Source of the DNA: Mycoplasmataceae bacterium UBA3729
GTDB taxonomy: Bacteria; Bacillota_I; Bacilli_A; Mycoplasmatales; Mycoplasmoidaceae
DNA length: 64,000 bases
Assembly: GCA_002372615.1 (NCBI GenBank)
Contig: DFHG01000008.1
Span: 36,590 to 100,589, forward strand
Reading direction: 5' to 3'
How positions within the stretch are numbered: the first letter of the stretch is position 1; each line of letters opens with the position of its first letter. Made by a program: the position numbers and the translations under genes. The notes under the pieces are model-generated. The model saw only the letters and a list, made by a program, of their open reading frames with translations, made no database searches and was not told the DNA's origin. Shown here piece after piece: positions 199-56,932 of this stretch.

Positions 199-1201
199 TT
201 AAAAATTAATGCAATAATTTTGTTTCAAAACATGCTTCTTTTCAATAAATAAATTTCAACTATTTTTTTGTTGACCAGCATAGTTTGTTTCTCTATGACA
301 ATTTAATAAATGTCTTATAGGGGAATTTATTCCGCCTTCAAGCACATTGTTCATACTTTTTATTTCATTATTGTCAAGAAAATTAAACAATGTTCCACTT
401 AAAAGTAATTTTCCTAAATTAAATGCAGCAGATCTTAGTTTTGCATGGGTAAATCAAATTTCACCGGATTCTGGATTAAAACTTTTTTTAACTAATAAAT
501 TCATAATATTTGTCCTTTCAAATTTTGAATTTAGATTGTCAATTATTTGCATGTTCAATAGATTTAATTTTTAATAATTATTCTCTAGATAAACATAATA
601 ATTCTTTTGACCAGCTTGTGTTTCGGGATTTAATGTTAGCTTTTTTCTAACATTCATTCAAACATGGAATAAGCATCTTTAGATTTTTATATTAAATCAC
701 ATTGATTTAATCGTTTTAATTAATCCATTTTGTCCATCACAAACAACATATTCAGGTTCATTAAAGTTTTTAAGAAAATTTCTTCAATTATTTGATGATT
801 CATAATCAACTAAACAAAAACCGATAACATATTTACCATTGCTTGCTATTAAATATGACTTCTTGTTAACTCTTAAACCATCATGATAGATAACAAGATG
901 TCTATTTCTTGATTCAGGAATAAAAAATATTCTTATTTTTAAATATCTTAGTGTTTCTCCAAAATGCCAATCTATGATAACCATACTCAAATATTTTCTT
1001 TGAATGGGTAAGATATTCAAAGTATTTGAACAACCATAATTTGATTTTTTGTTTCTTTTTATGATTTTTACCAATTTTTAAGTAACTGTGGCAATGTGGG
1101 CAATATCATTTTTGACTACCATTTTTGTATAACCCATATTTCTGCAATTTGTGACCACATTTTTGGCAATACCTATTGCCATTTCTTACTTTCTTTTCCA
1201 T
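199..1201 (-). mobile_element. Degenerate insertion-sequence remnant: DDE-type transposase gene broken by one frameshift and one in-frame TAA
   Basis: From ATG 1201 there is an N-terminal Cys4 zinc ribbon (CQKCGH..QKWYCPHCH). The frame changes near 1075-1100 into track ORF 784..1074, and the core continues through TGA codons (..VVCDGQNGLIKTI..IQRCLFHVWMN..). An in-frame TAA sits at 571-573. The same frame then resumes (..NNVLEGGINSPIRHLLNCHR..) and ends at 199. I could not assign the IS family by eye. Confidence 0.55.
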
Positions 1202-1275
1202 TTTTTTCAAAAAACCAACTTTTTTTGCAACATCATTCTATATTTTTGATTAATTGAGTTATAATTAATGTGTTT

Positions 1276-3372
1276 ATGAAATACAAATTATCAAAATTTT
1301 TATTATTATTTAGTACAGTAATTCCAACAATGTGTACATTTACAACTATTTCTTCAAGTTGTACACAAAAAAAAGAGGATGATGATGATGATGACACCAT
1401 TATCAATGATTATTTAACTTTAGAAGTTAAAGATGATTCATCTTTATGTTTCTGATGTAGTGATTTAATGAAACCATCTCAATCACCTAACTTGTATTAT
1501 GCTTGCTATGATCCACAAACTAAAAATAAGCAATTAGTTTGAAGAAAAATAGAAAGAATGGAAATAGAAACAAATTTTCCAACTATTGATGATATTAGTT
1601 TAAAATTAGAAAGTGGTAAAAAATATTTCTTACGTGGTGATAACTTAGATGGATGAGTAAAAGATAATTATGGAACATATACCCAATTTGGGAGTATAGC
1701 AATTAATGGTGGTGATGTAAGATTATCAGGATCAATAATGTCATTATTAGATAATGGAGAAGGTACAAAAAAATGACTCAATAATACATCGAAATGTTTT
1801 GATTCTTTATTTATATTTTCATCAGGTATAACAAAAATAGGTAACATTTTTTCTAATATTAATGAATTAGGTGATTCATGTTTTTCATCAATGTTTAATT
1901 ATTGTACTAATTTAGTTGAAGTTTCAAAGGATTTATTGCCATGGGATACATTGGCACCTGATTGCTTTTCTTACATGTTTGCTGGTTGCACTTCTTTAAC
2001 TACAGCACCTGATTTATCAGCAACAAATTTAATGGAAGGTTGTTATCAAGATATGTTTCATTCATGCCCACGTATAAATTCAATTAAACTTAATTATATG
2101 GGAAATTATCAAGAAGATTATTTTAGAAATTGATTTGCCTCTACAAGTTACATTGGTACATTTTATTACAATGGTAATAGTAGTGCTAATGATTTTGGAT
2201 TATATAATTGAACAGTTAAAAAGTTTTTTAGTTTATATAATGGTTCAAATGTATTATTTGGTTCTTTAAAAAAATCAGGTTTAGATTATAATGATTGAAA
2301 ACTTTTTTATCCTGATCAAAATTTTACTTTAAATGGATGAACACTAGATCATGATATTCCCGGTATTTCAGTTTATAATTCAGTTAATAATCAAGGTAGA
2401 GTTCTATGAAACAATTCATTAGATAAAACAATGTATGAATTTAAAGTTATTTTGCATATTCAATGCAATAATGAAAATTTAGATATTATAAGTAATAAGA
2501 TTGTTTTATGTTTATTTGATGATTCTACACTTCCTAGTGATATGAATGTTAGATGAGTAGGTCATAGAGGAACACCATCTGAATATTTTGAGTCTTCAAT
2601 AGAAAGTTTTGAATGTGCTGGGAATGATCCAAAATATGATGGAATTGAAACAGACATTCATATTACAGCAGACAATAAAATAGTTTGTGTACATGATTCA
2701 TGTTGTTTTTGAAATGATAGTAGAACTGAAAATGATAAAAATACAAAAATAGAGAGTCTTACATATGCTGAAGTAAGAAATAAATGATTAATTAATGGCT
2801 TGTCTGAATATCCTTATGATTGTCGAACTCACCAATATATCCCTCCTTTGCTTAGTGAATATTTAAATATTTGTTACAAATATAATAAAACAGCTGTAAT
2901 TGAAATCAAAAACGATTATAAGTGAGGTGACGATCAATCTGATTGAAAACCAGAAAAATTGGATGTTTTTTGAAATGAATTAACACCATGAATTAGAATA
3001 GGTTTAAAGTTTAATATTATAAGTTTTGATAATTTAACCTTAAAATATTTGATTGATACATATCAACTTACTCCAGATTTCTTTCAAATGTTGATAAATG
3101 GTTATGCTGATCCTAGTCATGATATTCATAATGATTTACAATACTTTTTAGATAACAACTTTAGTATTGATTGTACTGATTGACAAATAAGTGAAGTAGG
3201 TGGTGGTAATTTTAATCCTAGTAAAGCTAAAAGCTGAATAAATGCTTTTCATGCTAAAGGCTTGAAAGTTAATATATATACAATTAATAGTTTGTCAAGA
3301 GCTCAACAATTAATTAATTGTGGTGTTGATTATGTATCCTCTAATTATCGATATGATCGATGTCCAAAATAA
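1276..3372 (+). CDS. Surface lipoprotein: BspA-type leucine-rich repeats fused to a C-terminal glycerophosphodiester phosphodiesterase (GDPD) domain
   Basis: Signal peptide plus lipobox (..TTISSSC), followed by a D-rich linker. LRR units follow the pattern C(F/Y)xxMFxxCTSLxxAPDL. The C-terminal part carries GDPD motifs VGHRGTP, ESSIESFECA, GIETDIHITADNKIVCVHD, IEIK and NIYTINS. The ORF is continuous from 1276 (alternative GTG at 1270) to TAA 3370-3372 with TGA=Trp, checked codon by codon from 2134. Confidence 0.8.
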
Positions 3373-3444: not shown

Positions 3445-4656
3445 ATGTTATTAAAAAAATCAAAATTATTAAAATTATTTTCATGTTTCACATTAGGTTT
3501 TGGTATATGTGGATTAGTTTCACCTGCCATCACTAGTTGTAATAAAAAAAATAAAGAAGATGATGAAATAACTATTAAATTAAATAAAACTGATATTAAT
3601 TTGAGCACAACAGATTCAACAAATAATTCATTTCAGTTAATTCCTGCTATTACACCTATAGATAAGGCTGATTTACCTGTAACTTGAACTTCAGCAAATC
3701 CAGCAATAGCCACTGTTAATGCTGGACTTGTAGTAGCTGCAAAACCTGGTAAAACAAAGGTTACTGCATCTATTGGTAAAAAATCTGCTAGTTGTAATGT
3801 TACTGTAGTTCAAACTGATACAAATAATTATTTAGTTTTAGATGTTGTTGAAGATTCGGCAATGTGTTTTTGGTGTGACCTATCATATGCAACTGTTTCT
3901 CCTAATTTATCTTATATAGATTATGATGATTATGTTTCTGGTAAAACAAATTGGACTAATCTAAATAGAATTGATTTACCAAATAGTAAACCCTCTAAGG
4001 TAAATATATCTTTAGAATTAATACATGGTAAAAAATATTTATTGCGTGGTGATAATTTAAATGGATGATTACAATATAATTCATTAGCTAATCAATATAC
4101 ACAAGGTGGGAATATTGCGTTCTTAGATGGTGATGTAAAATTATATGGATCAATAATGTCATTGCTTGATAATGGAAGAGGTATAAAAGCTTCACTTGCT
4201 GATACTAATCGTTGTTTTAGTTCATTATTTAGATATTCAACAGGTATAACTAGAGTTGATGAAATATTTTCAAGTGTTAATCAATTAGGTAATGGATGTT
4301 TTAGAACAATGTTTGATAGTTGTACTAATTTAAGTGAAGTTAAAACTAATTTGTTACCATGAGTTGATTTAACAGAAGAATGTTTTTATCATATGTTTTA
4401 TGGTTGCTCATCACTAACAACAGCACCTGATTTACCAGGTGTAAATTTAGTAAAAAATTGTTATCGAGATATGTTTAATAAATGTGGTGTATTGAATTCT
4501 ATTAAATTAAATAATTACATGGGTGGTTATAATAACGATTATTTCCAAAATTGAGCAGATGATGTAGCAACGAATGGTACACTTTATTATAAAGGTAGTT
4601 CTACAGCTCAAGATTTTAAATTACCATCAGGATGACGTGTTGTAATTAATTCTTAG
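3445..4656 (+). CDS. Surface lipoprotein: Big_2 (bacterial Ig-like) domain plus BspA-type LRR, tandem paralog of 1276..3372
   Basis: Lipobox ..PAITSC. Big_2-like segment: LPVTWTSANPAIATVNAGLVVAAKPGKTKVTASIGKKSASCNVTV. The following LRR module is colinear with the upstream gene (GKKYLLRGDNLNGW, GSIMSLLDNG, CFxxMFxxCTNLSEV, LTTAPDL). Stop TAG at 4654-4656. Confidence 0.8.
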
Positions 4657-4753
4657 TTTATAATTTAAGAAAATATAAGCAAAGCATCATGAATCAAAAT
4701 AATTTATAAATGTCATATATATATAAGTTAATTAATCTAAATTTTTGAGAGGG

Positions 4754-4787
4754 AAAATCTTCTAGTCTTTTGATTAGAAGATTTTTT
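4754..4787 (+). terminator. Rho-independent terminator after the LRR lipoprotein pair
   Basis: 13-bp stem AAATCTTCTAGTC / GATTAGAAGATTT (one G-U pair), a TTTT loop, then a T-run. Confidence 0.7.
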
Positions 4788-4868
4788 GTTTAATTTGTGA
4801 AAATTAAACAATATTTAAATAATAATCGTCCTGTTAATACAACTAAAAATAACAAAACATATATAAAC

Positions 4869-5440
4869 ATGAATCAAAAAAATGATGAATGTTATACGTG
4901 AAAAGTTGAAAGTGATAGATTAGTTAATTATTTAATAAGGAAAAAAATTGTTTCTAAAAAGGCGAAAATTTGATTACCATTCAACGACTATAAAAGTGCC
5001 ATATATTTTTTACTTTTAGAAAATAGATACAAAAACTTGATTACTACAGATGATGATTTCTACAAACTTGCTAATAATATTGAGTATGATATTATTATTT
5101 CCAACCCTCCATTTCACAATCAATCTAAATATTTACAAAATTACTAGAATTAAATAAACCTTTTATTTTATTACAAACAATAATGTTTTTTAATAATGGA
5201 ACATGCATAAAAATGTTGATAAAATATGGGGCAAAATTTGGTGCTCTATGTCCTAATAAAAGAATGGGTTTTGAGAGAAATATTGGATTTTTATGTCCAA
5301 ATAAAAATATGGGATTCATTACAAATGGTAAGAAGTATGAATACACTTCTGCATTTTATTCATTTTGATTGTGTTTTAAAACAAAAGTAATATGATTTGT
5401 AAATATCGAAATTGAAAGTGATAAAAAAACATGAAATTAA
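4869..5440 (+). pseudogene. Frameshifted N6-adenine-type DNA methyltransferase remnant (NPPF motif)
   Basis: Frame 0 reads MNQKNDECYTW...YDIIISNPPFHNQSKYLQNY and stops at TAG 5145-5147. The reading continues in another frame from 5144 (LELNKPFILLQTIMFFNNG...YTSAFYSFWLCFKT) to TAA 5438-5440. A third short ORF (5431-5589) may be a further fragment. Confidence 0.5.
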
Positions 5441-8589: not shown

Positions 8590-10419
8590 TTATTGAATTG
8601 GTTTTAATATATCATGTGAATTAATAGTTAAATTGCTTCCATTATTAAAGAAAGTTGGATCATTTAAATACATCCATTTATAAATAAAATATTTATCATT
8701 TTTGAATGCATCATATGTAGTTGCATACATTTGTTTTTCTTTGGCAGGAAAAGCATCATATTTTGCTAAATCTAAAATCAAATTAGAAAATCTTTTATAT
8801 AGCTTACTTGATTCAGAAAAATCAAAAACATATCTTGAGAATGCTGTTGTGATATCTTCTTTTCCTTTTTTATATACATTAGTTTGTTTGTATGAATCAG
8901 CAAAAAAAGCAAAATAAGCTGGAAAGACTGCACTGAAACCAGAAAAATATGGAATTTTTGTTTTAAAATATAATATTTGGTTACCATCATTTTTAAATGA
9001 AAATTCAATGTTTAATAAAGAATAATTAGCTAAAGCAATAAAATCCCCAAAATGTATTTGGTTATTATTAATTCATTGCAAAATTGTTGGATCAAATTTA
9101 TTTTTTGTTTTAGTATCTTCAGTATCATATCAATCATCATAGTTTGGTTGTGTATTATTTCTAGATGAATCATCACCAGTTACTTGTTGATAACTTAAAT
9201 GTTCAATTTTAGGCTCAGAATTTGTTTTATCTTTGAATGTACTCCAATGATTTGTTTTTTTAATGGCTTTATTAATTTTTTCAATTTCATCTGGTTTAGA
9301 TAATCAATCAGAAAAAAATAAAGATGATGTGTTTTTTAATGGATTATAAAAAGCATTAGTTACATTATTTAAATGAATTAATGTAGGAACATTTGCAACG
9401 GAAATAACATCAGTTCGTTCATCATTATTAAATGTATAAACACAATATGGTGACATATTTTCACTAGCGTTTCAATCGAATTTTTTATTATTTTCATTAT
9501 AAGTGTATTTGCCTACAAATGATTCATTTGTAGGAATTATGTAAGATTTATTTTTGTTATATTCATTTCCTATACTAAATGATTTTTCTCTTAAATCATA
9601 AACTGTATTTAAAAGAATGAATGGGCAATTTATTAATTTATTATTAGTATTAATTCCACAATTTAATATATCTCAGTCAATAGAGTAAGGACCAAATTTG
9701 TAAGCAGATTTTCCATCACTAATTAAGTTAGCTGCAGAATATGAATAGCGATACAAATCTAAGTTATCTTCATTTGAAGAATGGATAAACCCATTCTCAT
9801 TGTTAGTGTACATAATTGAAAGTCTTTTATTAATTTCGTCATTATTTTTAAGTCCAATAATTTTATTTTGATTATTAAGCATGCAATTCAATGTTGTTAT
9901 TAAATTACTACTAACAGAATTGACTGCATTAATGGCAATAGAATTAAATAAATTTTCATAAGATGATAAATTACCTATTGATGCTGCATTATCAGAATAA
10001 GTTAATTTTTTATCATTATAATCTAATCATTTTTTATTAATCAAATCACTTTCATTTATAACTCATGGATGATTAGCATCACCATTACTATCTCATTGAT
10101 AATTATTAAATCCTGTATAACCGACCATTCTGCTTATAGTAGGATTAAATTTATTATCAAATGCAGATTTATAGATATATGAATTGGGCATGAATTTTAC
10201 TATGTTTGTTTCATTTATAGCTATATTATTTTTATTTCTTGCATATTGTAAAAAAGGATCATTGATAACAACATTATTATTAAATGGTGATTTAGATCAT
10301 ACAGGAATAAAATATTGTGAAATGGTTGAACAACTTGTTAAAGTAGCATTTGGTAAAAGTGCTATGCTATAAGGGATTGTAATTGTCACTATTTTAAGTA
10401 TTTTTTTATTTTTTAGCAT
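8590..10419 (-). CDS. Lipoprotein of unknown function (609 aa)
   Basis: N-terminus MLKNKKILKIVTITIPYSIALLPNATLTSC (lipobox). The track fragments 9673..9891 and 8590..8781 share a frame with ATG 10419 (1830 nt). I recognised no catalytic motif. Confidence 0.7.
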
Positions 10420-13659: not shown

Positions 13660-16600
13660 ATGAAAAAGTCTAAATTATTTCTATTTATAAACAGCATAAG
13701 CATGATTAGTTTGGTAACTACTCCATTGTTAACATCATGTACTAATTCATCAGATTTAAAAATAGTTACACGTGGTGATGGTACATATTTTGCTAAATAT
13801 GAGGATGATGAATTCTTATCAACTACTTTCAAAGAACAAATCAAAAACAGTTTGATGGATTCTTCTTCTTATGAAAAATTCAAACGTGAATATGCTAGTG
13901 AATTAATCTACAATTGGTATTACAATAGTTTTGTTAAAGATGGAACTAAGCATCCTGATATGAAGGATAAGTGAACTAAATGGATTGAAACAGCAGATGA
14001 AAAGTATAAAGAAGACTTAGATAAAGCTAAATCGGCTCATGGTGATGATTGAGCTTATTATTTCCAAAATGAAACTTTAGATCCAGTTGGTGGAACAGAA
14101 CAATCTTATAAATTTACTAACATTTGTGATAATATTCGTACTGAATTAACTTCATTAGCATTTCCTGAAAACTATCCATATTTAGCTTATTCTGATAATA
14201 ATGTATACAATGTAGAAAATGAAATTAAAACTTTTACATATGATATTTTCTCAAATAGTGATAACTGAAAAAATGTTAATTTCTATGCACGTGGGAACTC
14301 AAGTTATTCAATAAATAATTTTGATGATGTTTATGCATTAATTGGTAAAACTACATTTGATTTATGAACTGCTAATACCCACCCATTTTCAGTTTCTATG
14401 TCTTTATGAAAATATGCTGAGCCTAAAGAAGGCATTAGAAGTATATATTCATCTAAAGTTGTTGATAGTGATGACAATAATGATGATGTTCCTGATTCAT
14501 TAACTGAAATTAAAGCTTCATATGAATTACCTTCATTTCCTATTTATGATGGTACTGAAAATAATGCTAATGCAAAATTTTATAACTTATTTACAAAGTA
14601 TATAACTACTAATGATAATTATGGTATAGACAACAACGGTATTAGTGTTTTGGCTAATAAAAGTAATTTGTCAACAATTACTGATGATTCAGCTGTTTCA
14701 TTTATTGTTACTGCCAATGATGCATTTGATGCAACAGAAGATTATTTCTCAGGAGCTACAGCTAACTTATGATCATTTTATAGTGGTAATGATGCTGTTG
14801 ATGATAAATTTTTACAATTTGATATTAATGATTTATCTGTTGATATTCATTCACCAAGTAATACAGATATTTTAAGTAGCTTTTTATATCGATCAAATGA
14901 TCACCGTGTTTTCCAAAATAATAATCAATTAACAAATTTTGGTATAACATTAAGAAATTACTACAATAGTGGTTATTTAACTTCATTAAATAACAATTTT
15001 GAATATTGTGGTAATCCTTCTGATTTAAATGCTCCAAATGGTGATAATTCTTTCCATAGCTTTTTATTTACTGATTCAGCTAATTACAAATTTGATTATT
15101 ATGGTCACACTAATAATGAAGGCGGAGTTCAATGAGTTGCTAATGGATTAAGATTATTTGACAATAATATTCCATTACCTTATGTTTTAATTCGTGATTC
15201 ATTTGGTGTTCATTTAATTGGTTTAAATGGTGCATGGAAAAAAAATGATGTAGGTTATTTAGGCAAAGGAGCTTCTGACGAAGTTGATAATACTCAACCT
15301 TATTCTCAAGGTAGAGAAAATATTTTATTAAAAGCACAATCTTTATCACAAAAACAATCAAATTACACTTCAGATAATGGTGTTGATATTGTTGAAAAAA
15401 TTAAAACTTATTTTAATTCACATATGGATGATGTAATCATCAACATGGCACGGAATGAAATTAAGAGAGGAAATAACGCTGGTGGTGGAATAATTTTTGA
15501 TCATTCAGGACTATTAAATGATGCAAATATTACTCCTTTATACACATATCTAGATAAAGCTACTCAATACTTTATGTATCAAACTATTATCAATTCTATT
15601 GATACAGTTAATAAAAAGATGTTTAATGCTAAAATGACTAACACAAAAAATGCATTAATTTCTATGTCAAATTCATTTAAAGGGATGACTAATAATAATT
15701 ACAAGAATGGGTTAGCTTCTCCTTATCCATTCAAAATTATTTCTCCAGATGATGCTTCAAATGTTGTATCAAGTTATATTAATTCACATGTATTCTATGA
15801 TGTTGTTGGATTAATTGGTTGAGCTCCATTAGGTATGTTTCCAAGCACTAATGATTTTATAAATAGTCGTTGAACAAACCAGTGAAGCACTAATTTAACA
15901 GTTAACAACATTACTGATCGTAAATCAGATTTAGAAGAATATATTGATCGTTCATTAATTAACAATATTACTCCAAATATTCAAAATGATAAAATTGGTA
16001 AATATAGTGAACATATTTATCCAAAATGACAGGATAAAAAAGAAGATAAAATTATTTTTGCTACTGATCCAATTACAAATGGGATTTATAAAGCATTAGC
16101 ACAATATGCAGGTTTAGGTAATTTTGCTTATTCTACTAAGATTAAAGCAATGCAAAAATATGCAGTTGGTGATAATAAAGTTGTCAATGATTTCGATGAT
16201 ATTGATAGTTTATCAGGATTTGCAAACATTAGGACAGAAAGTATGGCAACAGCTATTGCAAGTGAATATTATTCTACTAAACTTTTAGGTGATAATGATA
16301 ACTTATCATACTTTGCTAATCTTGCTGATAAATTTACTAACTATGAAAATTTCTTAAAAAATGCATATCAATGAAAGTTAGGAAGTTCATTTACTTCTAA
16401 TACTTATAATGAAAATGTTGTTAACTATTGAACATTCTTAGACACAGTTCAATATTTATCACAAAATAATTATGAAAATTTAATTAATTATTTAAAACAA
16501 AATATATTAAAGAATGGACAAGAGGCAAATCTAGTATGATTGGTTAAAGATAATATTCATTGCAATCCTGATTTTATTAATAATGACTTATATGGTAATG

Positions 16601-17661
16601 ATTATGAAAAATTCTTTAAATGACAAAATAATTTTAATGGTATTTTTTCAAACCGCTATCTGCATGTAGATAACGACATCGCTGATGCAACACCAACTAG
16701 TTATGTTGATAATTCATCATATTATCAATATGCCCCAATGCCAATTGGTAGGGATAAATGAGAAAAACAAGTTATGGGTTATGTTGGTTTAGTAACTGAA
16801 TCAAATACACCAAATACTATTACAACTAATATAAGTGATCAATTATTCCATAATGGTTATTATTCAAAACGTACTAATAATGGTTTACATTTAGGTGGTT
16901 GATATAAATATATTAATTATGAAAATTTAATTGCATTGATTAAAGGTAAATCATCAATTATTGATTTAAAAAATATTGCTGATGAATTAATCCAAGGTAA
17001 TAAATATCCATGATTCACTCAATACGTTTATGATATTGTTAACCATACTACTTACCAAGCTGGTGATCCTGAAGTTGCAGCAGAAGTTGCAAGTGTTGGT
17101 GAACCTGTATTATCTAATATTGTTCAAGAAAGATTCTTAGGTGGAAGTTATCAACATACTAATAAAAATGGTGCAACAGTAACTATTAATTATGATGATA
17201 TTCAATGAGGATTAAATTACTATTGAAATCAAGAATTGACTCAAATTGACATTAATAATTTATTTTGACGATTCGGTGATGTTAATGGTGCAAGTGAATT
17301 ATGTGATGGTGATAATTTAATGAGTATTAGTCACACTATTAAATTATCTAATGACGAAGCTAATGCTAATGATTATGCAAGAATTTACACAATACAATTA
17401 AACTATGATGATATTTCTTCATATGATAAATTATTCTCAGCATTAGGTGGAGACGAAGAAGATGTTGATGTTCGAGAATCTGCTCAAACATTATTAGATT
17501 TAATTACTGTTCAATTTGCTTTAAATTCTTCAAACCAAACTCATGCTATTCAAGAAGTAATAAAAACCGTTTATAACAATAATAAAATTACTGTATTTGA
17601 TCGAAGATTAAATGATAATTTAGGCCAAATTTGAGTAAAAAATTGAAAAGCAACAAACTAA
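13660..17661 (+). CDS. Very large surface lipoprotein (1333 aa), function unknown
   Basis: Lipobox ..TTPLLTSC. The track fragments 13660, 15424, 16150 and 17320 all share frame 1. I read the 13975-15423 stretch through with no TAA or TAG. Stop TAA at 17659-17661. Confidence 0.75.
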
Positions 17662-17735: not shown

Positions 17736-18911
17736 TTAGCTTTGATTAGTGAAAAAATTAATTATTTTATCAATATCACTTTGGTTTAAACCTGCATACA
17801 ATAAATAATTTTCACTTATTTGTTTTAAATCTTCATGTGATCAATCTTCTAAATGTTCGGCAGTATCTGATATAGCTTTAACAGCAGAGAAAAATAATTC
17901 ATTTAAATAATATTTAATCAACATATTTGTTCTTGTATTAATTTCATTAATATCAATTTTATAAAAGTTGACAAATGATGTTAAATAATCATTTTTTATT
18001 TCTTCATATGTACATCCACATATTGATTCAATTAAAAAGCAAATAAATCCTGTTCGGTCTTTTCCTTCAGTGCAATGTATATATACTTTTTGTTGTGTAA
18101 CATTTCTATTAATAATTTCATTAATAATAAATTCAAATATTTGTTTAGTTTTTTGTAAAAAATCTTGTGAATAATAACATGCAGTGAGGTTATTTGCATA
18201 ATAATGAGATTGGTTATATAATGATTTACAATAAGAATTTTCATTTTCAGCCAAATCCATTAAAAGTGCAAGTTTGGTATCATTAGTATTTAAACTAATA
18301 AGATAATCGATATTTGTACTATGTAATAAATCATCTGCATATTTATATCTTATATATGAAGGATCACAAGGTGTAACACCACGATATAAATTATTTATTT
18401 TTGTAGATTTAACTTTTCTAAAATTAGCAAATGCTTCATCATCATTATAATCTTCTCTATTATTTGATTGCTCAAAACTAAGTGCATTTTGAATATCCAA
18501 ATACTTTTTAGCTTTATTTAATGAAATAGTTGCTATTGAATTATCTGATAATCCATATTTATCTCAAATATCTTCACCACTTTTTTCACCAAAATATAGA
18601 TATTCGTATAAAGGATAATCAATGAATATTAATTCTCCACAATAACCATAAAAATTGTTATAGTAAGGAATGTCATAAAACAATTTGTTACCAGAAATAG
18701 TAATATTTATACTATCACCATATTTATATCCAAGTTTATCTAAATCATTATGTTTAATAAGAAAATTGCACCCACCAAATTCAGTATTATGCTCAACAAT
18801 AATATTTTCACAATTCGGTATGTTTTTATTATTGCATGAAGTTATAAATAGTGATGGTATACTAAAAGGAAAAAATAAACAAGAAAATATTTTATTTTTA
18901 ATATCAATCAT
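17736..18911 (-). CDS. Lipoprotein with a C-terminal protein-tyrosine-phosphatase-like domain (HCxxGxDRTG)
   Basis: Lipobox ..SLFITSC. The N-terminal beta-rich domain resembles the C-terminal barrel of SAM hydroxide adenosyltransferase (DUF62-like). Catalytic P-loop IHCTEGKDRTGF is followed by ..NDYLTSF. The two track fragments join across TGA (1176 nt). Confidence 0.7.
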
Positions 18912-19010: not shown

Positions 19011-19373
19011 TTATTTATTACATCAAAGACCATGCAAATTGCAATAAGCATAAACTTCTGCATTATGATCAATTGATACATTTATTACTGGTTGATAAGC
19101 TGGTTTTAAGTGATAAAAAAATACATTATCATTATTTTTTATGCAGATTCATTCAATGTAATGATTATCTAGCATTGGATGTAATTCACTTCCTACACAA
19201 ATACCATTTTTGTTAATAATAGGAATGTGCTTGTCTTTTAAAGCATCAGCTTTATTAGGAATTAATAATTCCATTTTCTGATTACAACAAGATAAACAAT
19301 TGCATGGACAATCTTGAATTGCATAAATTATTGCACCACATTTTGAACAATGATAAAATTTAATTGATTGCAT
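19011..19373 (-). CDS. dfx: Desulfoferrodoxin-type (2Fe) superoxide reductase
   Basis: Centre I cysteines: YHCSKCG...LSCCNQKMELL. Centre II ligands: KHIPII, HPMLDNHYIEW, YAYCNLHGLW. Extended across TGA 19149-19151 to TAA 19011-19013 (363 nt). Confidence 0.8.
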
Positions 19374-20992: not shown

Positions 20993-22198
20993 ATGAAGAT
21001 AAAAAGTAATTCTAAATTAACACAAAGTATTCATGAAGGAATGGTAAAAGATCAATTTGGTTCAGTAATTGCTCCAGTATACCATACTTCAACTTTTGAA
21101 TTTGAATCTGTAGATCAAGGCGCTAGAAGATTCAAAGGTGAAGAAGGTGGATACATATATACACGTTTAGGAAACCCTACAACTGATGCATTAGCAAAAA
21201 AAATTGCTAAACTTGAAAATGCTGAAGCATGTGTAATGACTGCATCTGGTATGGGTGCAATTGCATCTGTAATGTGAACATTTTTAAAAACAGGAGATCG
21301 TTTGATTGCAGACTCTAATCTTTATGGTTGTACATTTGCATTATTCACTCACACATTAACTAAATTTGGTATTGATGTTCAAATTTGTGATTTCAGTAAT
21401 GTTGAAAACATTAAGAAATTATTAACAAAAAACACAACTATGGTATATTTTGAAACACCAACAAACCCAGCATTAAAAGTTAATGATATTGAATTAATTG
21501 CAAAAACTGCTCATGAATTCAATAAAGATATTAATGTTGTTGTTGACAACACATTTGCATCGCCATATTTACAAAACCCAATATCTCATGGTGCTGATAT
21601 TGTTGTTCACTCAGGAACTAAATACATTAATGGTCATTCAGATGTAATTGTTGGTGCCATTGTATCAACTAAAGAAAAAATTGCAAAAGCAACAATGATT
21701 GGATTAAAAGATTGTACAGGTGCTGTATTAGATCCAGGTGCAGCTTTCTTAGTAAATAGAGGATTATGCACTCTTCCAATAAGAATGGAACAACATTGTA
21801 AAAATGCTAAGAAATTCATTGAATATTTATCTAAAAACAAATACATCAAAAATATTAATTATCCTGGTTTAACAACTTGCATAGGACATGAAGCTGCTAA
21901 GAAACAAATGAAAGATTTTGGTGCAATGGCTTCATTTGAAACAAATTTAACATTTGAACAAACAAAAGTATTTGTTAATAATGTAAAAGTTTGAACATTA
22001 GCTGTATCATTAGGTGGTGTTGAATCATTAATTGAACACCCAGCAAGCATGACTCACTCAACTTATTCTGAAGCAGAACTTGCTAAATATAACATTACTC
22101 CAACACTTATTAGAATTTCTATTGGTTTGGAAGATATTGATGAATTAATCGCTGATTTTGATCAAGCACTTGAAATCGCAGCAAAATCCCCTAGATAA
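20993..22198 (+). CDS. mgl: PLP-dependent L-methionine gamma-lyase (Cys/Met metabolism family)
   Basis: GGYIYTRLGNPT, SGMGAI, HSGTKYINGHSDV (PLP lysine), LAVSLGGVESLIEHPASMTH and IRISIGLEDIDELIADF. The fragments join across two TGA codons (1206 nt). Confidence 0.85.
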
Positions 22199-22837: not shown

Positions 22838-22911
22838 TGGAGCGGGCGATCGGAATTGAACCGACGTCAATAGCTTGGAAGGCTATGGTTCTGCCACTGA
22901 ACTACGCCCGC
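22838..22911 (-). tRNA. tRNA-Gly (anticodon UCC), CCA encoded
   Basis: GCGGGCGTAGTTCAGTGGCAGAACCATAGCCTTCCAAGCTAT..GGTTCAATTCCGATCGCCCGCTCCA. The cloverleaf folds by eye. Confidence 0.9.
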
Positions 22912-22929
22912 AGCCATTATAAATGATTA

Positions 22930-23015
22930 TGGTGCTGGAAGAGGGACTTGAACCCTCACGATATTGCTATCACAGGATTTTAAGTCCTGTGCGTCTACCA
23001 TTCCGCCACTCCAGC
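22930..23015 (-). tRNA. tRNA-Leu (anticodon UAA), long variable arm, CCA encoded
   Basis: GCTGGAGTGGCGGAATGGTAGACGCACAGGACTTAAAATCCTGT...GGTTCAAGTCCCTCTTCCAGCACCA. Confidence 0.9.
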
Positions 23016-23018
23016 AAG

Positions 23019-23093
23019 TGGTGTCCCACCGGAGACTCGAACTCCGGACCCCTTCATTAAAAGTGAAATGCTCTACCACTGAGCTAGTGGGAC
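23019..23093 (-). tRNA. tRNA-Lys (anticodon UUU), CCA encoded
   Basis: GTCCCACTAGCTCAGTGGTAGAGCATTTCACTTTTAATGAAGGGGTCCGGAGTTCGAGTCTCCGGTGGGACACCA. Confidence 0.9.
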
Positions 23094-23097
23094 AATT

Positions 23098-23172
23098 TGG
23101 CTGGGTAGGTTGGATTCGAACCAACGCATGTCAGAATCAAAATCTGATGCCTTACCGCTTGGCTACAACCCA
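23098..23172 (-). tRNA. tRNA-Gln (anticodon UUG), CCA encoded
   Basis: TGGGTTGTAGCCAAGCGGTAAGGCATCAGATTTTGATTCTGACATGCGTTGGTTCGAATCCAACCTACCCAGCCA. Confidence 0.9.
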
Positions 23173-23175
23173 AGA

Positions 23176-23260
23176 TGGTGGACAGAAGTGGATTCGAACC
23201 ACTGAAACCGGGGGTGGCTGATTTACAGTCAGCTGCGTTTGGCCGCTTCGCTATCTGTCC
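23176..23260 (-). tRNA. tRNA-Tyr (anticodon GUA), long variable arm, CCA encoded
   Basis: GGACAGATAGCGAAGCGGCCAAACGCAGCTGACTGTAAATCAGCC...GGTTCGAATCCACTTCTGTCCACCA. A TATAAT box (plus-strand 23271-23276) lies about 10 nt upstream of the 5' end. Confidence 0.9.
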
Positions 23261-23852: not shown

Positions 23853-24998
23853 TTAAGACCTCTTGCAAATTACATTATCTTTGTATCATGATAAAAAATG
23901 ATCAATTTTAGAAAGTGTCTTTTGTGGAATATTTTTAATATTATCATCCACAATATCAGGTTCAAGCGGATCAATAAATTTTAAACATCCGCTTTTAGGA
24001 TCTCAATAAATCTTGTGTTTGTCAAATAAAGTATGAGTGTCGGGTTTTAATGGTAATATATTATCTTCATCTTTTATTTCCAATAATATTTCTTTGTCAA
24101 AATTATTTTTAATACATTCTTTTTTTATTTCACATACAGGTTTGATGTGTGCAAATTCTACTAAATCAATATAAACATCATCAAATTTTTTTTCTCAAAA
24201 ATTCTCAGTGAAATTTTTTCTTTTTTTATTAAGCTCACTATACAAATCATTACGATATTTTCTCACTATATTACAAATTTCTTCATGTTTTATTCTTTGT
24301 GGGCAATATTTTTTTTGAATCTTTTTAATTTTTGTTTTTTGCTCTTGTGGTGTTAATCGATGATTGAAATAATCAAAATCATCTTTAAGATTATGATCAT
24401 GATTTAATCATTCATAAAAATCTTTATATTGTTTAATGTTATTTTTTCTAGAAAAATAATCCTTTCACAATAATTTGTATTCATTTGAATCTAATTCATC
24501 CTTTTTAAATTTTAGTCGCAATGATTGGAATAAAAAACCTATATTTTCTTTTTGATTTCTGTTTTTCAAATAAAAACTTGATTTAGTTGGATTACCTTGG
24601 CCAGAAGGATTTGAACCAGTAATAATGTAATCAATATTCCCTAATGTCTGACCTATTCATTCACTTTTAAATAATGAATTTATTTTCTTTATTTGTTCAT
24701 TTTTTAGATTAATGTATTGCTTACATCTACCATTTATATTTGGAGTGTTGGTTAACCCAATGTTTTCTAATACTTTATTTCTAAATTTAAATCTAAAAGC
24801 ATTACTTTTATTAAAATGTGCTTCTGTTGTGAATTGAGTTATAAATAATTTTTTTCATTGAATTTTGTAGTCATGAATTCAATTATATTCATCAACTAAT
24901 AATATTACTTGGCAACAACTTTCTTGCTTTTTTCCAGTTTTAAAAAACAATGTAATTGGAACAAATGAATATTTAGCAATTCTTTCAACATAATGCAT
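23853..24998 (-). CDS. Type II restriction endonuclease candidate with a C-terminal HNH (beta-beta-alpha-Me) nuclease motif
   Basis: 381-codon ORF, continuous with TGA=Trp (translated codon by codon). The C-terminus carries VEFAHIKPV....DNILPLKPDTHTLFDKHKIYW. The ATG overlaps the methyltransferase stop (TAATG at 24996-25000). Confidence 0.65.
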
Positions 24999-26006
24999 TA
25001 TATAGAAACCTCATTTAACATAACATTTAGAGATGGTTTATTTGTCCATTCAGTTAATTTAAAATTTATTGATTTATAATGTGTTCTTTTTGATTTGTTA
25101 TTTTTCAAAAATTTTGTTAATATATCTAAAATTAATTCTGGTGGTATATGGCTACGCTCCATAGCATTACGTTTGTATTTTATTCGCACTTTAATTTGTT
25201 TTGACATTAATTTTGACAATTTTTGTTCTGTATTTAGCCGTTTTATCTCATCTAATTTATTGTTTTTGCATGCTCCTGATAAAATTAAATAGTAATTGTT
25301 ACTATCAATTTTTTTTATTGACATATAACCTTTTTTAGCTTTTTTTAAATTTAATTTAATATTTGATAAAAAGCATGTTGGTTTTTTTGAAAAATTTTCA
25401 TTATATGCAGAATAATGAGCAATGTTTTTAATACCATTAGTAAAACCTAAATTGTATTTAATATATTTCCAGATAAGTGAAGATGCTGGATTTTCAATGT
25501 AATAATTTTTTGGTTTAAAATAACATAAAATTTTAATTACATTTTGAATACACCTTTCACCTAGTTCACCAACATATTTTGGAACTTGTTTTCTTCCTAA
25601 TGGATATGAATTTCCTGAAAATCCATTTCATTTGACATCTTCTGGTCAAGTTTCAACTTTTTTTGTGTCATGATTTCAAAAATGGTGTGGGTTTCCTGAA
25701 AAATAATTGCCATGTTCATCTTTTATTGTTGAAATTGATTGCATTGCAGAACTAAAAGATTGACATAAACTACTTGATACTATAATATCTGGAATTTGAA
25801 TTTCATTTTTTTTAATTTTTACATTCAATTTTTTAATAACATCATTAGTTGATAGATCAAAAACAATGTTATTAAATCCATTTGATTTTTTAATAATGTC
25901 TAATGTATATACTTTAAAATATTTTTTTATTCGAGATTTTTTTAGAGCTAAGCGTAGTGAATTACACCCCCCCAAACATATCTCAAATAATAAGTCTTTT
26001 TACCAT
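24998..26006 (-). pseudogene. DNA (cytosine-5)-methyltransferase, out of frame at a G7 tract (candidate phase-OFF allele)
   Basis: ATG 26006 gives MVKRLIIWDMFGG, then G7, then TAA. With G6 or G9 the frame runs on for about 335 codons. Motifs: DMFGG(G)C (I), SSSLCQSFSSA (IV), YYIENP (VI), SHIPPEL (X). The span is 1009 nt, which is 3n+1. Confidence 0.7.
25967..25973 (-). repeat. Homopolymeric G7 (plus-strand C7) tract inside methyltransferase motif I
   Basis: Plus strand reads ..attacaCCCCCCCaaacat... It is the longest G/C homopolymer I noticed in this AT-rich window. Confidence 0.9.
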
Positions 26007-55516: not shown

Positions 55517-56932
55517 TTAATAAGGTGAAACTACTCATTCACCACTGAAACCAAAATTTATAACTGATGATTCACCATTATAGTAAAAAGTACCCTTACT
55601 TGCTACATCTTTATTTCAATTTTCAAATGCACCAATTGGAGCATTTTCAATTATTTCATTATAACCAATTTTGATATTATTTAATGAATTACAACCTAAA
55701 AAAATACTACGGTAACATCCTTGAGATAATTCAATTGATGGTAATTCTGCACTAGTAATTAATCCACAAGCGCAAAACATAAAACTATAACAATCATTAG
55801 CTAAAGTCATTGCAGGAAGAATAGGGATAGTTGTTATTGAAGGACAATATGCAAACATTTCATAATAACAACTTTCAGCCATTTCTACAGCTGGTAACTG
55901 TGAAGGTATTTGGTTTAAACTTTCGCAGTTATAAAACATAGAATAGTAACAACCTTTTTTCAATTTATAAGCTGGTAAATCAGGTGCTTTTTGTAATGAT
56001 GTACAATTAGCAAACATATATGTATAACAACTTTCAGCCATATAAATAGCTGGTAAATCAGGTGCTTTTTGCAATGATGTACATCCCTCAAACATATGTT
56101 CATAACAAAAATCATACAATTGCATTGCAGGTAATTCTGGTGCATTTACCAAACTAGTGCACTGAGCAAACATAAAAGAATAAGCACGATCTAAAATAGT
56201 TCGCGATGGTAATTTTGGAGCATTAACTAATGAAGTACAACCAAGAAACATTGATTGATAACAGTAGGGAGCTAAATTTGTAGCAATCAATTCAGGAGCA
56301 GATTCTAATGATGCACAATAACTAAACATTCCTCGATAACAAGAATGAGATAAACTAACTGCAGGTAGACTAGGAGCAAATACTAAATTTTCACAGTCCT
56401 CAAACATACTTGTATAACAATAATCAAAATTTAAATTGATTACAGGTAAGATTAAATCTTTTGCATTGATAGTTGCACTAGATCCTGCAAATAATTTATA
56501 AAAACAATGACTACAGTTAAAATAATAATTTTCTTGGCAATTTCCATCATCAATTAAACTCATTACATCACCACTTAAATTAACATTACCAGTTAATACT
56601 ATTTTGTTTGTGTATGAGGATGATTGATTTCAAATATTGTGATTATTACCTTTTAAATATATTTTCGTACCACTTAAAATAATAATTTTTTCCTCATAAT
56701 TTTTTCATACTAACCCATCATTTGAATATTGTAAATCACGAATTTTGTCATCTTGACCATTAGGATGGACAAATGTTAATGTTGAATCTTCTTTTGCTTC
56801 AATAGATAAATAAGAAAAATCATTCTCATTTGAATTATGTTTGCAACTAGATAAATAGTTTGCTATTGGCAAAATTATTGTATTTAAACTTAAAAATGAT
56901 AAAAGAAAAAATTTACGGTTCATGTTTTTCAT
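55517..56932 (-). CDS. BspA-type leucine-rich-repeat surface lipoprotein (third paralog, at least 8 repeat units)
   Basis: Lipobox ..NYLSSC. The N-terminal module is colinear with the 1276 and 3445 genes (YLKGNNHNIW.., GDVMSLIDDG). It is followed by about 26-aa units CYxxMFxxCTSLxxAPxLPA. 1416 nt with TGA=Trp. Confidence 0.8.

Follow-up and report, generated by a model that had tools for sequence, protein, structure and literature searches.

A putative surface lipoprotein joining a BspA-like repeat module to a glycerophosphodiesterase domain in an uncultured Mycoplasmoidaceae bacterium

The lipoprotein gene and its host

The window analysed, a 64-kb stretch of DNA, carries a lipoprotein gene at 1276..3372 of the forward strand, which in genetic code 4 translates into 698 aa followed by a TAA stop at 3370-3372. 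Eighteen in-frame TGA codons are read as Trp in this code and would be 18 internal stops under table 11, in agreement with a Mollicutes-type window of 25% GC. The first-pass annotation had described one continuous lipoprotein ORF, and this reading holds, as the table 4 product is intact and begins with a signal peptide and a lipobox cysteine (Cys29). All of the motifs that it quoted were found in the translation, both in the N-terminal half (repeat motifs CFSSMFNYCTNL, CFSYMFAGCTSLTTAPDL and CYQDMFHSCPRI) and in the C-terminal half, which has the glycerophosphodiesterase (GDPD) motifs HRG at 430, ESSIESF at 439, IETDIH at 457, CVHD at 471, VIEIK at 541 and YTIN at 668. Its layout of two parts was borne out as far as the LRR-like and GDPD parts are concerned, but the protein has three folded parts and a linker; an Ig-like beta-sandwich and an adjacent paralog lacking the enzyme had been overlooked.

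A TATAAT box resembling a -10 element (1260..1265, forward strand), read from the sequence 10 nt 5' of the ATG, is a possible promoter giving a short leader. A generic promoter scan, uninformative in such AT-rich DNA, gave fewer matches here than in shuffled sequence. The gene belongs to an uncultured, probably anaerobic Mycoplasmoidaceae bacterium whose nearest named relative, placed by enolase homologues, is 'Ca. M. girerdii'. Its source habitat appears to be rumen or gut metagenomes and it carries desulfoferrodoxin, and for these two reasons we consider it a probable anaerobe.

Neighbourhood and family members in the window

Directly upstream lie broken IS/transposase-like ORFs (199..1210, reverse strand) with a zinc-ribbon N-terminus that scores below the Pfam threshold. 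Downstream, at 3445..4656 on the forward strand, a tandem paralog (phmmer E 7e-89 to the fusion protein) encodes a lipoprotein with a Big_2 domain (30 bits) and the repeat module, in which LRR_5 falls below threshold, but without GDPD; the repeat modules of the two proteins are 53% identical. A third lipoprotein of the family, with the same module and about nine repeats, is encoded at 55517..56932 on the reverse strand (phmmer E 6e-65, four matched stretches). No genes for uptake or catabolism of glycerol-3-phosphate (G3P) or glycerol are visible within the 64-kb window.

Signal peptide, lipobox and linker

The signal peptide and lipobox occupy aa 1-29 (1276..1362, forward strand), with a predicted lipidated Cys29. 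The N-terminus, MKYKLSKFLLLFSTVIPTMCTFTTISSSC, agrees with the PROSITE PS51257-type rule (basic N-terminus, hydrophobic core, [LIVMFWSTAG]2-[LIVMFYSTAGCQ]-[AGS]-C, Cys within positions 15-35). Compared by eye with this rule, it has K2, K4 and K7 followed by ...FTTISSSC29, that is, K/R among the first 7 residues, 6 uncharged residues before I-S-S-S-C, and a cysteine within 15-35. The same sequence is kept in two corresponding loci from other metagenome assemblies (L084 and L085), and homologous lipoboxes are found in the tandem paralog (SPAITSC) and in a homologue from a second lineage, MBP5257108.1 (P0001; LPAITSC). Acylation and surface exposure of the protein are predicted on this basis.

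Residues 1-39 are disordered in the predicted model. An acidic flexible linker (aa 30-44; 1363..1407, forward strand; pLDDT < 50) follows the lipobox; its poly-Asp tract has the codons (GAT)5GAC and lies at 1378-1395. Strains differ in this tract by E34D, D35G and D36G, and in P0132 the tract is one residue shorter.

Repeat module

The N-terminal module consists of two subdomains on the forward strand. The first (aa 45-158; 1408..1749) is modelled by AlphaFold2 (AF2) as a beta-sandwich with pLDDT mostly above 85; it is 49% identical to that of the adjacent paralog and is kept within the unit of LRR_5 relatives. The second (aa 159-317; 1750..2226) is a predicted BspA-like repeat solenoid with a C-terminal cap, comprising about four turns with the pattern C(F/Y)xxMFxxCxxL, and in the model short strands recur every 26-30 aa with pLDDT above 90.

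Assignment of this module to the BspA-type leucine-rich repeats, as first proposed, stands as a statement of homology and fails at the level of domain thresholds. The expected LRR_5 match (PF13306) was absent from the fusion protein at E<=1, and the tandem paralog (16.4 bits) and P0001 (24.9 bits) remained below the cut-off of 27.7; nor did the fusion protein reach the thresholds of DUF285 (PF03382; 12.7 bits vs 25, E 0.11) or PARCEL (TIGR02167; 15 bits vs 30, E 0.016). On the other hand, phmmer related it to PF13306-carrying proteins (E-values between 1e-117 and 1e-26), LRR_5 was matched at E<=1e-3 by 23 of the 33 relatives aligned and DUF285 by none, and a profile of the repeat family matched PDB entries 4fs7 (E 8e-6) and 4gt6 (E 1.8e-4). 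A PDB search with the N-terminal half as a single sequence found no match, and Foldseek with the modelled N-terminal part returned Ig-like matches only, with no LRR match at E<=1e-3 and internalin C merely at an rmsd of 14 A. The 26-residue repeats of DUF285/PARCEL proteins are encoded by palindromic repeat DNA (PMC2996958); the DNA coding for the module, searched for tandem and palindromic repeats, has none beyond short scattered matches at chance level. Sequence comparison thus makes the module a homolog of LRR_5 proteins, by an indirect relation through its relatives. The label of host-binding adhesin is a putative one, taken over from the family name.

Ig-like spacer

Between the repeat module and the enzyme, aa 318-424 (2227..2547, forward strand) are modelled as an Ig-like sandwich of seven strands (AF2, pLDDT 55-85) that belongs to no Pfam family. 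Its top Foldseek matches are cadherin/Ig domains (about 118 columns, E ~0.01), and its only relative by sequence is the corresponding part of P0001, with 41% identity.

GDPD domain and its possible substrates

The C-terminal part (aa 425-698; 2548..3369, forward strand) is a GDPD catalytic domain, as the first-pass annotation had expected. Pfam PF03009 matches aa 430-688 (E 9e-19; 68.9 bits, cut-off 23.6) over profile positions 1-238 of 244. The AF2 model is a TIM barrel with pLDDT mostly 85-95, and Foldseek aligns it with the GDPD and GlpQ structures 3ch0, 2pz0, 9f5m, 5t91 and 1vd6 (E 1e-9, TM normalized to the target 0.72-0.83). GDPD structures share a catalytic His pair with Arg (HRG...HD) and acidic metal-binding residues (E-x-D...E-x-K), and on alignment all eight of the corresponding residues are kept, as had been anticipated: H430, R431, E439, E458, D460, H473, E543 and K545. 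These columns are invariant throughout the family alignment, apart from E543 being Asp in one member, and the residues are unchanged in every strain and in P0001. Judging from sequence and model, the domain is apparently catalytically competent and metal-dependent.

The nearest GDPD relatives (P0121, P0160-P0162, P0164 and P0184) are proteins of 307-335 aa with signal peptide and lipobox from Mycoplasmataceae/Mycoplasmoidaceae metagenome-assembled genomes (MAGs), so that GDPDs of this subfamily are as a rule extracellular lipoproteins; the subfamily also has loop insertions absent from GDPDs of 230 aa. Outside the Mollicutes, the nearest cellular relatives are apparently cytoplasmic proteins of ~230-250 aa from Clostridia and spirochaetes. 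Fusions to binding modules occur in the broad GDPD group as Big_2+GDPD and phage BppU_N+GDPD. A genome-contig scan with the GDPD alignment was dominated by generic Clostridia GDPDs of 230 aa (26-32% identity) and is silent on the distribution of the fusion; no locus from Mollicutes came up, probably since tblastn matches are interrupted at TGA codons. The NCBIfam equivalog models of GlpQ/UgpQ (NF006989; 34 bits vs a cut-off of 264) and of the S. aureus lysophosphatidylglycerol phospholipase D (lysoPG-PLD; NF053857; 15 bits vs 450, E 0.009) were far from reached, and substrate specificity is therefore not transferable from characterised enzymes. By sequence, the domain is best regarded as a family member and not as the ortholog of any of these.

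An enzyme of lysophospholipase D or sphingomyelinase D type acting on intact (lyso)phospholipids would make the protein a contact-dependent membrane-damaging factor instead of a scavenger. Foldseek gives a probability of 1.0 to a lysoplasmalogen-specific phospholipase D (7ym0) and to the S. aureus lysophosphatidylglycerol enzyme (8ghh), the staphylococcal NCBIfam model does match weakly, the loop insertions of the Mollicutes subfamily could form a membrane-interface surface, and tethering by a binding module would suit action on contact. However, the lysophospholipases D give lower TM scores (0.56-0.64) than classical GDPDs do (0.7-0.83), and the 15 bits lie far under the 450-bit cut-off, and we regard this activity as quite improbable.

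Polymeric glycerol-phosphate in the wall and lipoteichoic acids of Gram-positive neighbours is another candidate substrate, in which case the module would dock the mycoplasma or its enzyme onto these walls and the G3P would come from microbes instead of host lipids. Among solved structures, the nearest in sequence is the C-terminal glycerophosphodiesterase (GP-PDE) domain of staphylococcal phage K gp155 (9f49/9f5m, E 5.5e-12; cellular GlpQ and UgpQ structures reach about 1e-4 to 1e-5), the long relatives include phage BppU_N+GDPD tail proteins, the structural matches include B. subtilis GlpQ (5t91), which is an exo-acting teichoic-acid hydrolase, and a dense gut or rumen community would offer such walls. 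Yet the cellular relatives outside the Mollicutes, being short and apparently cytoplasmic, suggest that the ancestral enzyme acted on small-molecule diesters, Pfam finds no cell-wall-binding domain (SH3b, LysM, CWB) in the fusion protein, and an activity of gp155 is not documented in the searchable literature, where nothing relevant was found on the PDB entries concerned (ORF58, gp155). Teichoic acids are thus an unlikely substrate.

Strain variation, second lineage and selection

The first-pass annotation had named a stop or frameshift between the two halves as the finding that would undo the fusion, and none exists in L084, L085 or L086, which come from different samples. The ORFs of L084 and L085 (691 aa) span the LRR/GDPD junction and are interrupted only by the contig end, that of L086 (483 aa) crosses the junction, and L087 covers the GDPD end only (292 aa), all without internal stops. 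With the junction intact in independent metagenome assemblies, the fusion is not a frameshift artefact. The suspicion of an assembly or sequencing artefact, or of a decaying pseudogene joining two separate genes, has some ground in the IS-like remnants next to the gene, a site where assemblies break; the contigs of L082-L085 end either in this region or at the 5' end of the gene. Nevertheless, the architecture recurs, equally continuous, in the second lineage (P0001/P0159), and the chance of the ORF staying open under neutrality is only 0.8-3.8%. In view of the intact strain ORFs and this open-frame test we rejected an artefact or pseudogene, which is effectively refuted.

The open frame is under selection. 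Between strains, dN/dS of the fusion gene is about 1.0 over the whole gene, compared with 0.06-0.17 in neighbouring genes, and reaches 1.4 in the N-terminal module; substitutions are nevertheless rarer at positions conserved with P0001 (odds ratio 0.26, p 1e-5). A dN/dS of ~1 combined with avoidance of conserved positions indicates a functional, fast-evolving surface protein, although relaxed constraint could account for part of this ratio. The lineage of P0001 is distant from the window organism, with glucose-6-phosphate isomerase (PGI) 59% identical between the two. Conservation within the protein is highest in the GDPD domain (67% identity, vs 39% for the N-terminal module), whose excess over PGI shows long-term constraint on the enzyme. 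Scans of metagenome contigs with peptide patterns and a Trp-free degenerate DNA pattern gave no match, which is a weak negative.

It could be argued that the protein is mainly a variable surface antigen or adhesin, with the GDPD as a scaffold of little or no catalysis. The dN/dS values of the gene and of its N-terminal module are near that of the paralog without the enzyme (1.1), the poly-Asp tract is polymorphic, and in the related 'Ca. M. girerdii' the expanded BspA-like families are considered to serve in host interaction or as antigens (PMC4206474). The precedent for such a GDPD is M. pneumoniae MPN566, which is inactive because the HD motif and other conserved residues have been lost (PMC3178575). 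In contrast to MPN566, the fusion protein retains the full set of eight catalytic and metal residues, in every strain and in P0001, and we rejected an inactive GDPD on these grounds; the enzyme being also the best conserved part, a mainly antigenic role is very unlikely.

Proposed function and significance

The protein is, in our view, somewhat more probably than otherwise (about 0.55) a surface glycerophosphodiesterase tethered to its target that serves in nutrient scavenging. From the membrane outwards, the acidic linker would be followed by the BspA-like module, with its beta-sandwich and about four LRR-type turns, then by the Ig-like spacer, and at the far end by the GDPD, which would most likely cleave extracellular glycerophosphodiesters, for example the deacylated head groups of phospholipids such as glycerophosphocholine, into G3P and an alcohol. 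For a wall-less and biosynthetically poor cell these products would be a source of carbon, phosphate and a lipid precursor. Binding or targeting is the most likely role of the repeat module, which would keep the enzyme at a surface where substrate is produced; candidates for this surface are the host epithelium, protozoan partners and other microbes.

It is conceivable, albeit improbable, that the target to which the module brings the enzyme is another microbe (a protozoan partner or Gram-positive walls) instead of the animal host. On contact, the bacterium, itself without a wall, would strip the teichoic acids or membrane lipids of its neighbour of glycerol-phosphate by means of a tethered inter-microbial harvesting enzyme whose binding end evolves fast to follow its targets. 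A precedent for a protozoan partner is the association of the related 'Ca. M. girerdii' with Trichomonas.

Under the preferred reading of a tethered scavenging enzyme, no new mechanism is involved, since surface GDPD lipoproteins and fusions of enzymes to binding modules are both well known; the fusion pairs two familiar kinds of surface protein in a way that is rare and unstudied. Mollicutes rely on scavenged lipids and lipid precursors, and both lipid acquisition in uncultured gut and rumen lineages and the role of expanded BspA-like families are largely unknown. A BspA-like module physically joined to a defined enzyme activity is therefore one of the few cases in which it can be tested what such modules do, the suggestion being that they target surface enzymes. 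Owing to its constrained catalytic core and fast-changing exterior, the protein is also a candidate antigen or strain marker.

Comparison with known systems

Among characterised proteins, M. pneumoniae GlpQ (MPN420) is a GDPD-family enzyme from the same bacterial family, which converts glycerophosphocholine into G3P and choline and requires the same conserved residues, its substrate being first imported by an unknown transporter in the published scheme (PMC3178575). Unlike the fusion protein, MPN420 is short and has neither signal peptide nor binding modules. Glycerol-dependent cytotoxicity in M. pneumoniae depends on O2, through GlpO and H2O2 (PMC3178575), and a virulence role of this kind is unlikely in the probable anaerobe of the window; the link to cytotoxicity drawn in the first-pass annotation is doubtful for this reason. 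In M. pneumoniae (GlpQ) and H. influenzae, scavenging of host phospholipid head groups by GDPD is established (PMC3178575); the H. influenzae glycerophosphodiesterase acts on host-derived substrate and moves choline from host to bacterium. The fusion GDPD differs from this enzyme, protein D, which is of the E. coli GlpQ type (1t8q class, TM only 0.57-0.60). Protein D (GlpQ) is a surface-exposed lipoprotein; it lacks a fused binding module and its organism is a diderm.

The repeats are homologous to those of BspA of Tannerella forsythia and of the BspA-like families (LRR_5) of Trichomonas and 'Ca. Malacoplasma girerdii', which are surface proteins occurring in expanded families. The fusion protein differs from these families in having only about four turns, with a period of ~26-30 aa, and in missing the Pfam threshold. 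Enzyme fusions are not reported for any of these families in the literature examined, and the BspA ligands TLR2 and gp340 should not be assumed for its module.

Phage tail and baseplate GP-PDE proteins (phage K gp155, PDB 9f49/9f5m/9euf; BppU_N+GDPD), which include the closest solved GDPDs by sequence, are likewise built as a binding or attachment protein that ends in the enzyme, but they are parts of virions, have other N-terminal modules and are ~22% identical in structural alignment. Closer in sequence are the stand-alone lipoprotein GDPDs of Mollicutes (P0121, P0160-P0164 and P0184; e.g. MDD6145292.1), which belong to the same subfamily (33-42% identity), share its loop insertions and, in all but P0163, have signal peptide and lipobox. 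They measure 269-335 aa and have neither repeat module nor Ig spacer, and hence carry the enzyme directly on the lipid anchor.

The first-pass annotation considered the architecture undescribed. This is correct for the searchable literature, which holds nothing relevant on LRR-GDPD fusions, but not for public databases, since the homologue MBP5257108.1 (P0001; Mycoplasma sp. MAG GCA_017959425.1; 765 aa, Big_2+LRR_5+GDPD) had already been deposited, uncharacterised and under the generic name 'Ig-like domain-containing protein'. Where the window protein has its poly-Asp linker, the homologue carries an additional Big_2 domain at the N-terminus; identity between the two proteins is 48%, with 98% of the query covered. 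The two share the lipoprotein architecture of repeat module, Ig-like spacer and GDPD, and both genes lie near PGI and a transposase.

Reading frame and domain layout

The gene at 1276-3372 (+) lies in a window of 25% GC and carries 18 in-frame TGA codons, with the first TAA or TAG at 3370; in genetic code 4 it reads as one ORF of 698 aa. Its N-terminus (MKYKLSKFLLLFSTVIPTMCTFTTISSSC) has a basic start, a hydrophobic core and an I-S-S-S-C29 lipobox and conforms to the PROSITE-type lipoprotein rule, and a canonical AITSC box is found both in P0001 (MBP5257108.1), a homologue of the same architecture, and in the adjacent paralog. The first-pass annotation had proposed a single lipoprotein ORF, which is borne out by the continuous frame and the lipobox at C29, and all motifs that it had listed recur in the translated sequence at the positions named. 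A TATAAT box 10 nt upstream of the ATG is a putative promoter.

In the models (AlphaFold2, full length, mean pLDDT 81.9; structure model of aa 40-422, pLDDT 86, pTM 0.81) a disordered signal peptide and an acidic, poly-Asp-containing linker (aa 1-39) are followed by a beta-sandwich (aa 45-158), a solenoid of about four turns in which short strands recur every 26-30 residues, closed by a cap (GTFYYNG...; aa 159-317), a seven-stranded Ig-like sandwich (aa 318-424) and an alpha/beta barrel (aa 425-698). Both parts of the two-part layout suggested earlier are therefore present, but a third folded domain, the Ig-like spacer, lies between them. This spacer belongs to no Pfam family, is shared with P0001 only (41% identity) and has no counterpart in the adjacent paralog. 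The poly-Asp linker directly after the lipobox is encoded by (GAT)5GAC (1378-1395) and varies between strains (E34D, D35G, D36G; one strain allele, P0132, is one residue shorter). Because this is an in-frame trinucleotide repeat, it is expected to give length variation rather than on/off switching.

The GDPD domain

The barrel matches PF03009 with 68.9 bits (cut-off 23.6) over almost the entire profile, and Foldseek aligns it with classical GDPD, GlpQ and UgpQ structures (TM, target, 0.7-0.83). Residues H430-R431-G, E439, E458-x-D460, H473-D and E543-x-K545, which fall in conserved columns of the family alignment, are all present and are unchanged in all strains and in P0001. A rival reading takes the protein to be chiefly an antigen or adhesin whose enzyme domain is idle, but this conservation of the catalytic residues speaks against it.

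The domain scores far below the cut-offs of the equivalog-level NCBIfam models, and its substrate is therefore not transferable by orthology. One alternative is an enzyme that attacks a target membrane in the manner of a lysophospholipase D. When 1.84 billion cluster representatives were searched exhaustively with HMMER, 1221 matches emerged, just one of them scoring better than 1e-30. Closest to the domain are 307-335-aa proteins that carry a signal peptide and a lipobox and come from MAGs of Mycoplasmataceae and Mycoplasmoidaceae. Judged from sequence, it thus belongs to a Mollicutes subfamily of GDPDs that are surface lipoproteins. Among solved structures, the nearest in sequence is the GP-PDE domain at the C-terminus of phage K gp155 (9f49/9f5m; E 5.5e-12). 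Remoter long relatives are surface proteins with Big_2+GDPD and phage tail proteins with BppU_N+GDPD, so that GDPD joined to binding modules is a recurring design. The affinity to phage tails also suggests a further rival, the harvesting of teichoic acid.

The N-terminal repeat module

A BspA-type LRR module had been claimed for the N-terminal half. Pfam gives no LRR_5 match in the protein itself, direct HMM scores are weak (DUF285, E 0.11; PARCEL repeat, E 0.016) and Foldseek finds no significant LRR match for the modelled N-terminal part. The homology to LRR_5 proteins nevertheless holds: phmmer retrieved more than 100 proteins (E 1e-26 down to 1e-117), the majority with PF13306, and LRR_5 was detected at E<=1e-3 in 23 of 33 aligned relatives, DUF285 in none of the 33. 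A profile built from the family also retrieves two proteins of known structure, 4fs7 and 4gt6, both LRR_5 structural-genomics targets. Given this strong homology despite weak direct scores, "BspA-type LRR relative" is a fair label for what is at most a candidate adhesin. PARCELs are defined by palindromic DNA repeats (PMC2996958), and no palindromic repeats of this type were found in the DNA that encodes the module.

Two further lipoproteins in the window share the module (beta-sandwich plus LRR-type repeats): the next gene, 3445-4656 (+), which has Big_2 and no enzyme, and a third family member at 55517-56932 (-) with about nine repeats.

Continuity and divergence of the fusion

Public collections contain the exact protein sequence, encoded on a contig of 101.5 kb, and other metagenome assemblies, from related strains, carry the gene beside the same set of neighbours (paralog, PGI, UDG, DnaB, L9, S18, SSB, S6). 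In strain loci L084 and L085, whose 691-aa frames are truncated solely by the end of the contig, and in L086 (483 aa), the junction is crossed without stop or frameshift. L087 (292 aa), which covers the GDPD end only, is also intact; L084 is about 92% identical to the window protein in amino acids. P0001, together with P0159, has the same continuous architecture in a second, distant lineage; its identity is 48% across 98% of the length, and PGI again lies alongside. The halves are thus not separated by a stop or frameshift, a possibility raised earlier, and an artefactual fusion is refuted by the independent assemblies and the second lineage.

Towards P0001 the GDPD is 67% identical and the repeat module 39% (53% to the adjacent paralog, where GDPD is absent), while PGI of the two organisms is just 59% identical. 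The catalytic end is therefore the conserved part, and the putative binding end has diverged faster or been swapped between paralogs. Between the window and L084, dN/dS (Nei-Gojobori) was 1.03 for the whole gene, 1.43 for the N-terminal module, 0.79 for GDPD and 1.12 for the enzyme-less paralog, compared with 0.47 for another lipoprotein (609 aa, no family; 8590-10419, -) and 0.06-0.17 for PGI, UDG, DnaB, L9 and a 220-aa ORF. Positions that are conserved with P0001 are strongly spared by the amino-acid changes between strains (odds ratio 0.26, p 1e-5), and under neutral simulation of 77 substitutions the frame stays open in just 0.8-3.8% of histories. Both results argue for a functional gene with a constrained core and a fast-changing exterior, as would fit an exposed surface protein.

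Genomic context and habitat

Upstream of the fusion lie three broken ORFs that overlap one another and have a zinc-ribbon at the N-terminus (199-1210, -); they resemble the remains of an IS or transposase. In related strains the contigs stop in this region or at the 5' end of the gene for the fusion, and the P0001 locus likewise adjoins a transposase (Transposase_mut). Downstream, a long hairpin with a T-run (4752-4787), which looks like the terminator of the adjacent paralog, immediately precedes an apparently truncated N6-adenine methyltransferase fragment (4797-5147, +; NPPF motif, MTS/Eco57I matches). An HNH_2 endonuclease (29 bits) adjoins a 325-aa ORF (together 23853-25975, -) that has no Pfam match and, by eye, C5-cytosine-methyltransferase-like motifs (...CQSFS..., ...ENP...); the two may form a restriction-modification pair. 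Five tRNA genes cluster in a locally GC-richer segment (22841-23260, -).

Predicted surface proteins are plentiful in the window, among them two more large putative lipoproteins, one of 1333 aa with DUF3713 (13660-17661, +) and the 609-aa one mentioned above. A lipoprotein with a tyrosine-phosphatase-family domain (17736-18911, -; Y_phosphatase3, 55 bits; CX5R motif HCTEGKDRTG) is a second putative surface phospho-hydrolase, and one may speculate that it follows the GDPD, converting G3P to glycerol and phosphate.

The nearest named relatives of the enolase are from 'Ca. Malacoplasma girerdii' (68%), Mycoplasmoidaceae MAGs and Malacoplasma penetrans. 'Ca. M. girerdii' is Trichomonas-associated and was reported to have 26 BspA-like proteins (PMC4206474). 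The sample labels 'STEW19-1 ... METAG' and the position of the P0001 assembly accession amid RGIG ruminant-gut MAGs suggest a rumen or ruminant-gut origin of the strains and P0001. A desulfoferrodoxin (superoxide reductase; 19011-19373, -; PF01880, 48.6 bits) and a methionine gamma-lyase-like PLP enzyme of Cys/Met metabolism (20993-22198, +) are typical of anaerobes and unusual for classical mycoplasmas. The glycerol-dependent cytotoxicity invoked in the first-pass annotation, which is O2-dependent (GlpO/H2O2), is therefore unlikely here.

Proposed role and comparison with known proteins

The fusion is most likely an enzyme on a lipid anchor, reaching outward from the cell. GDPD at the tip would cleave extracellular glycerophosphodiesters to G3P and an alcohol, and the repeat module and Ig-like spacer would place the enzyme on, or hold the cell to, a substrate-rich surface.

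The architecture had been thought undescribed. No paper on an LRR-GDPD fusion was found in the searchable literature; however, a protein of this architecture from a second lineage is already deposited under a generic name. Both components, and the principle of equipping an enzyme with a binding module, are already familiar. In M. pneumoniae, the paralog MPN566 is inactive and no longer has the HD motif, along with further conserved residues (PMC3178575), whereas the GDPD described here keeps HD and all key residues. In contrast to the stand-alone lipoprotein GDPDs of Mollicutes, the fusion is a rare member with added modules between anchor and enzyme.
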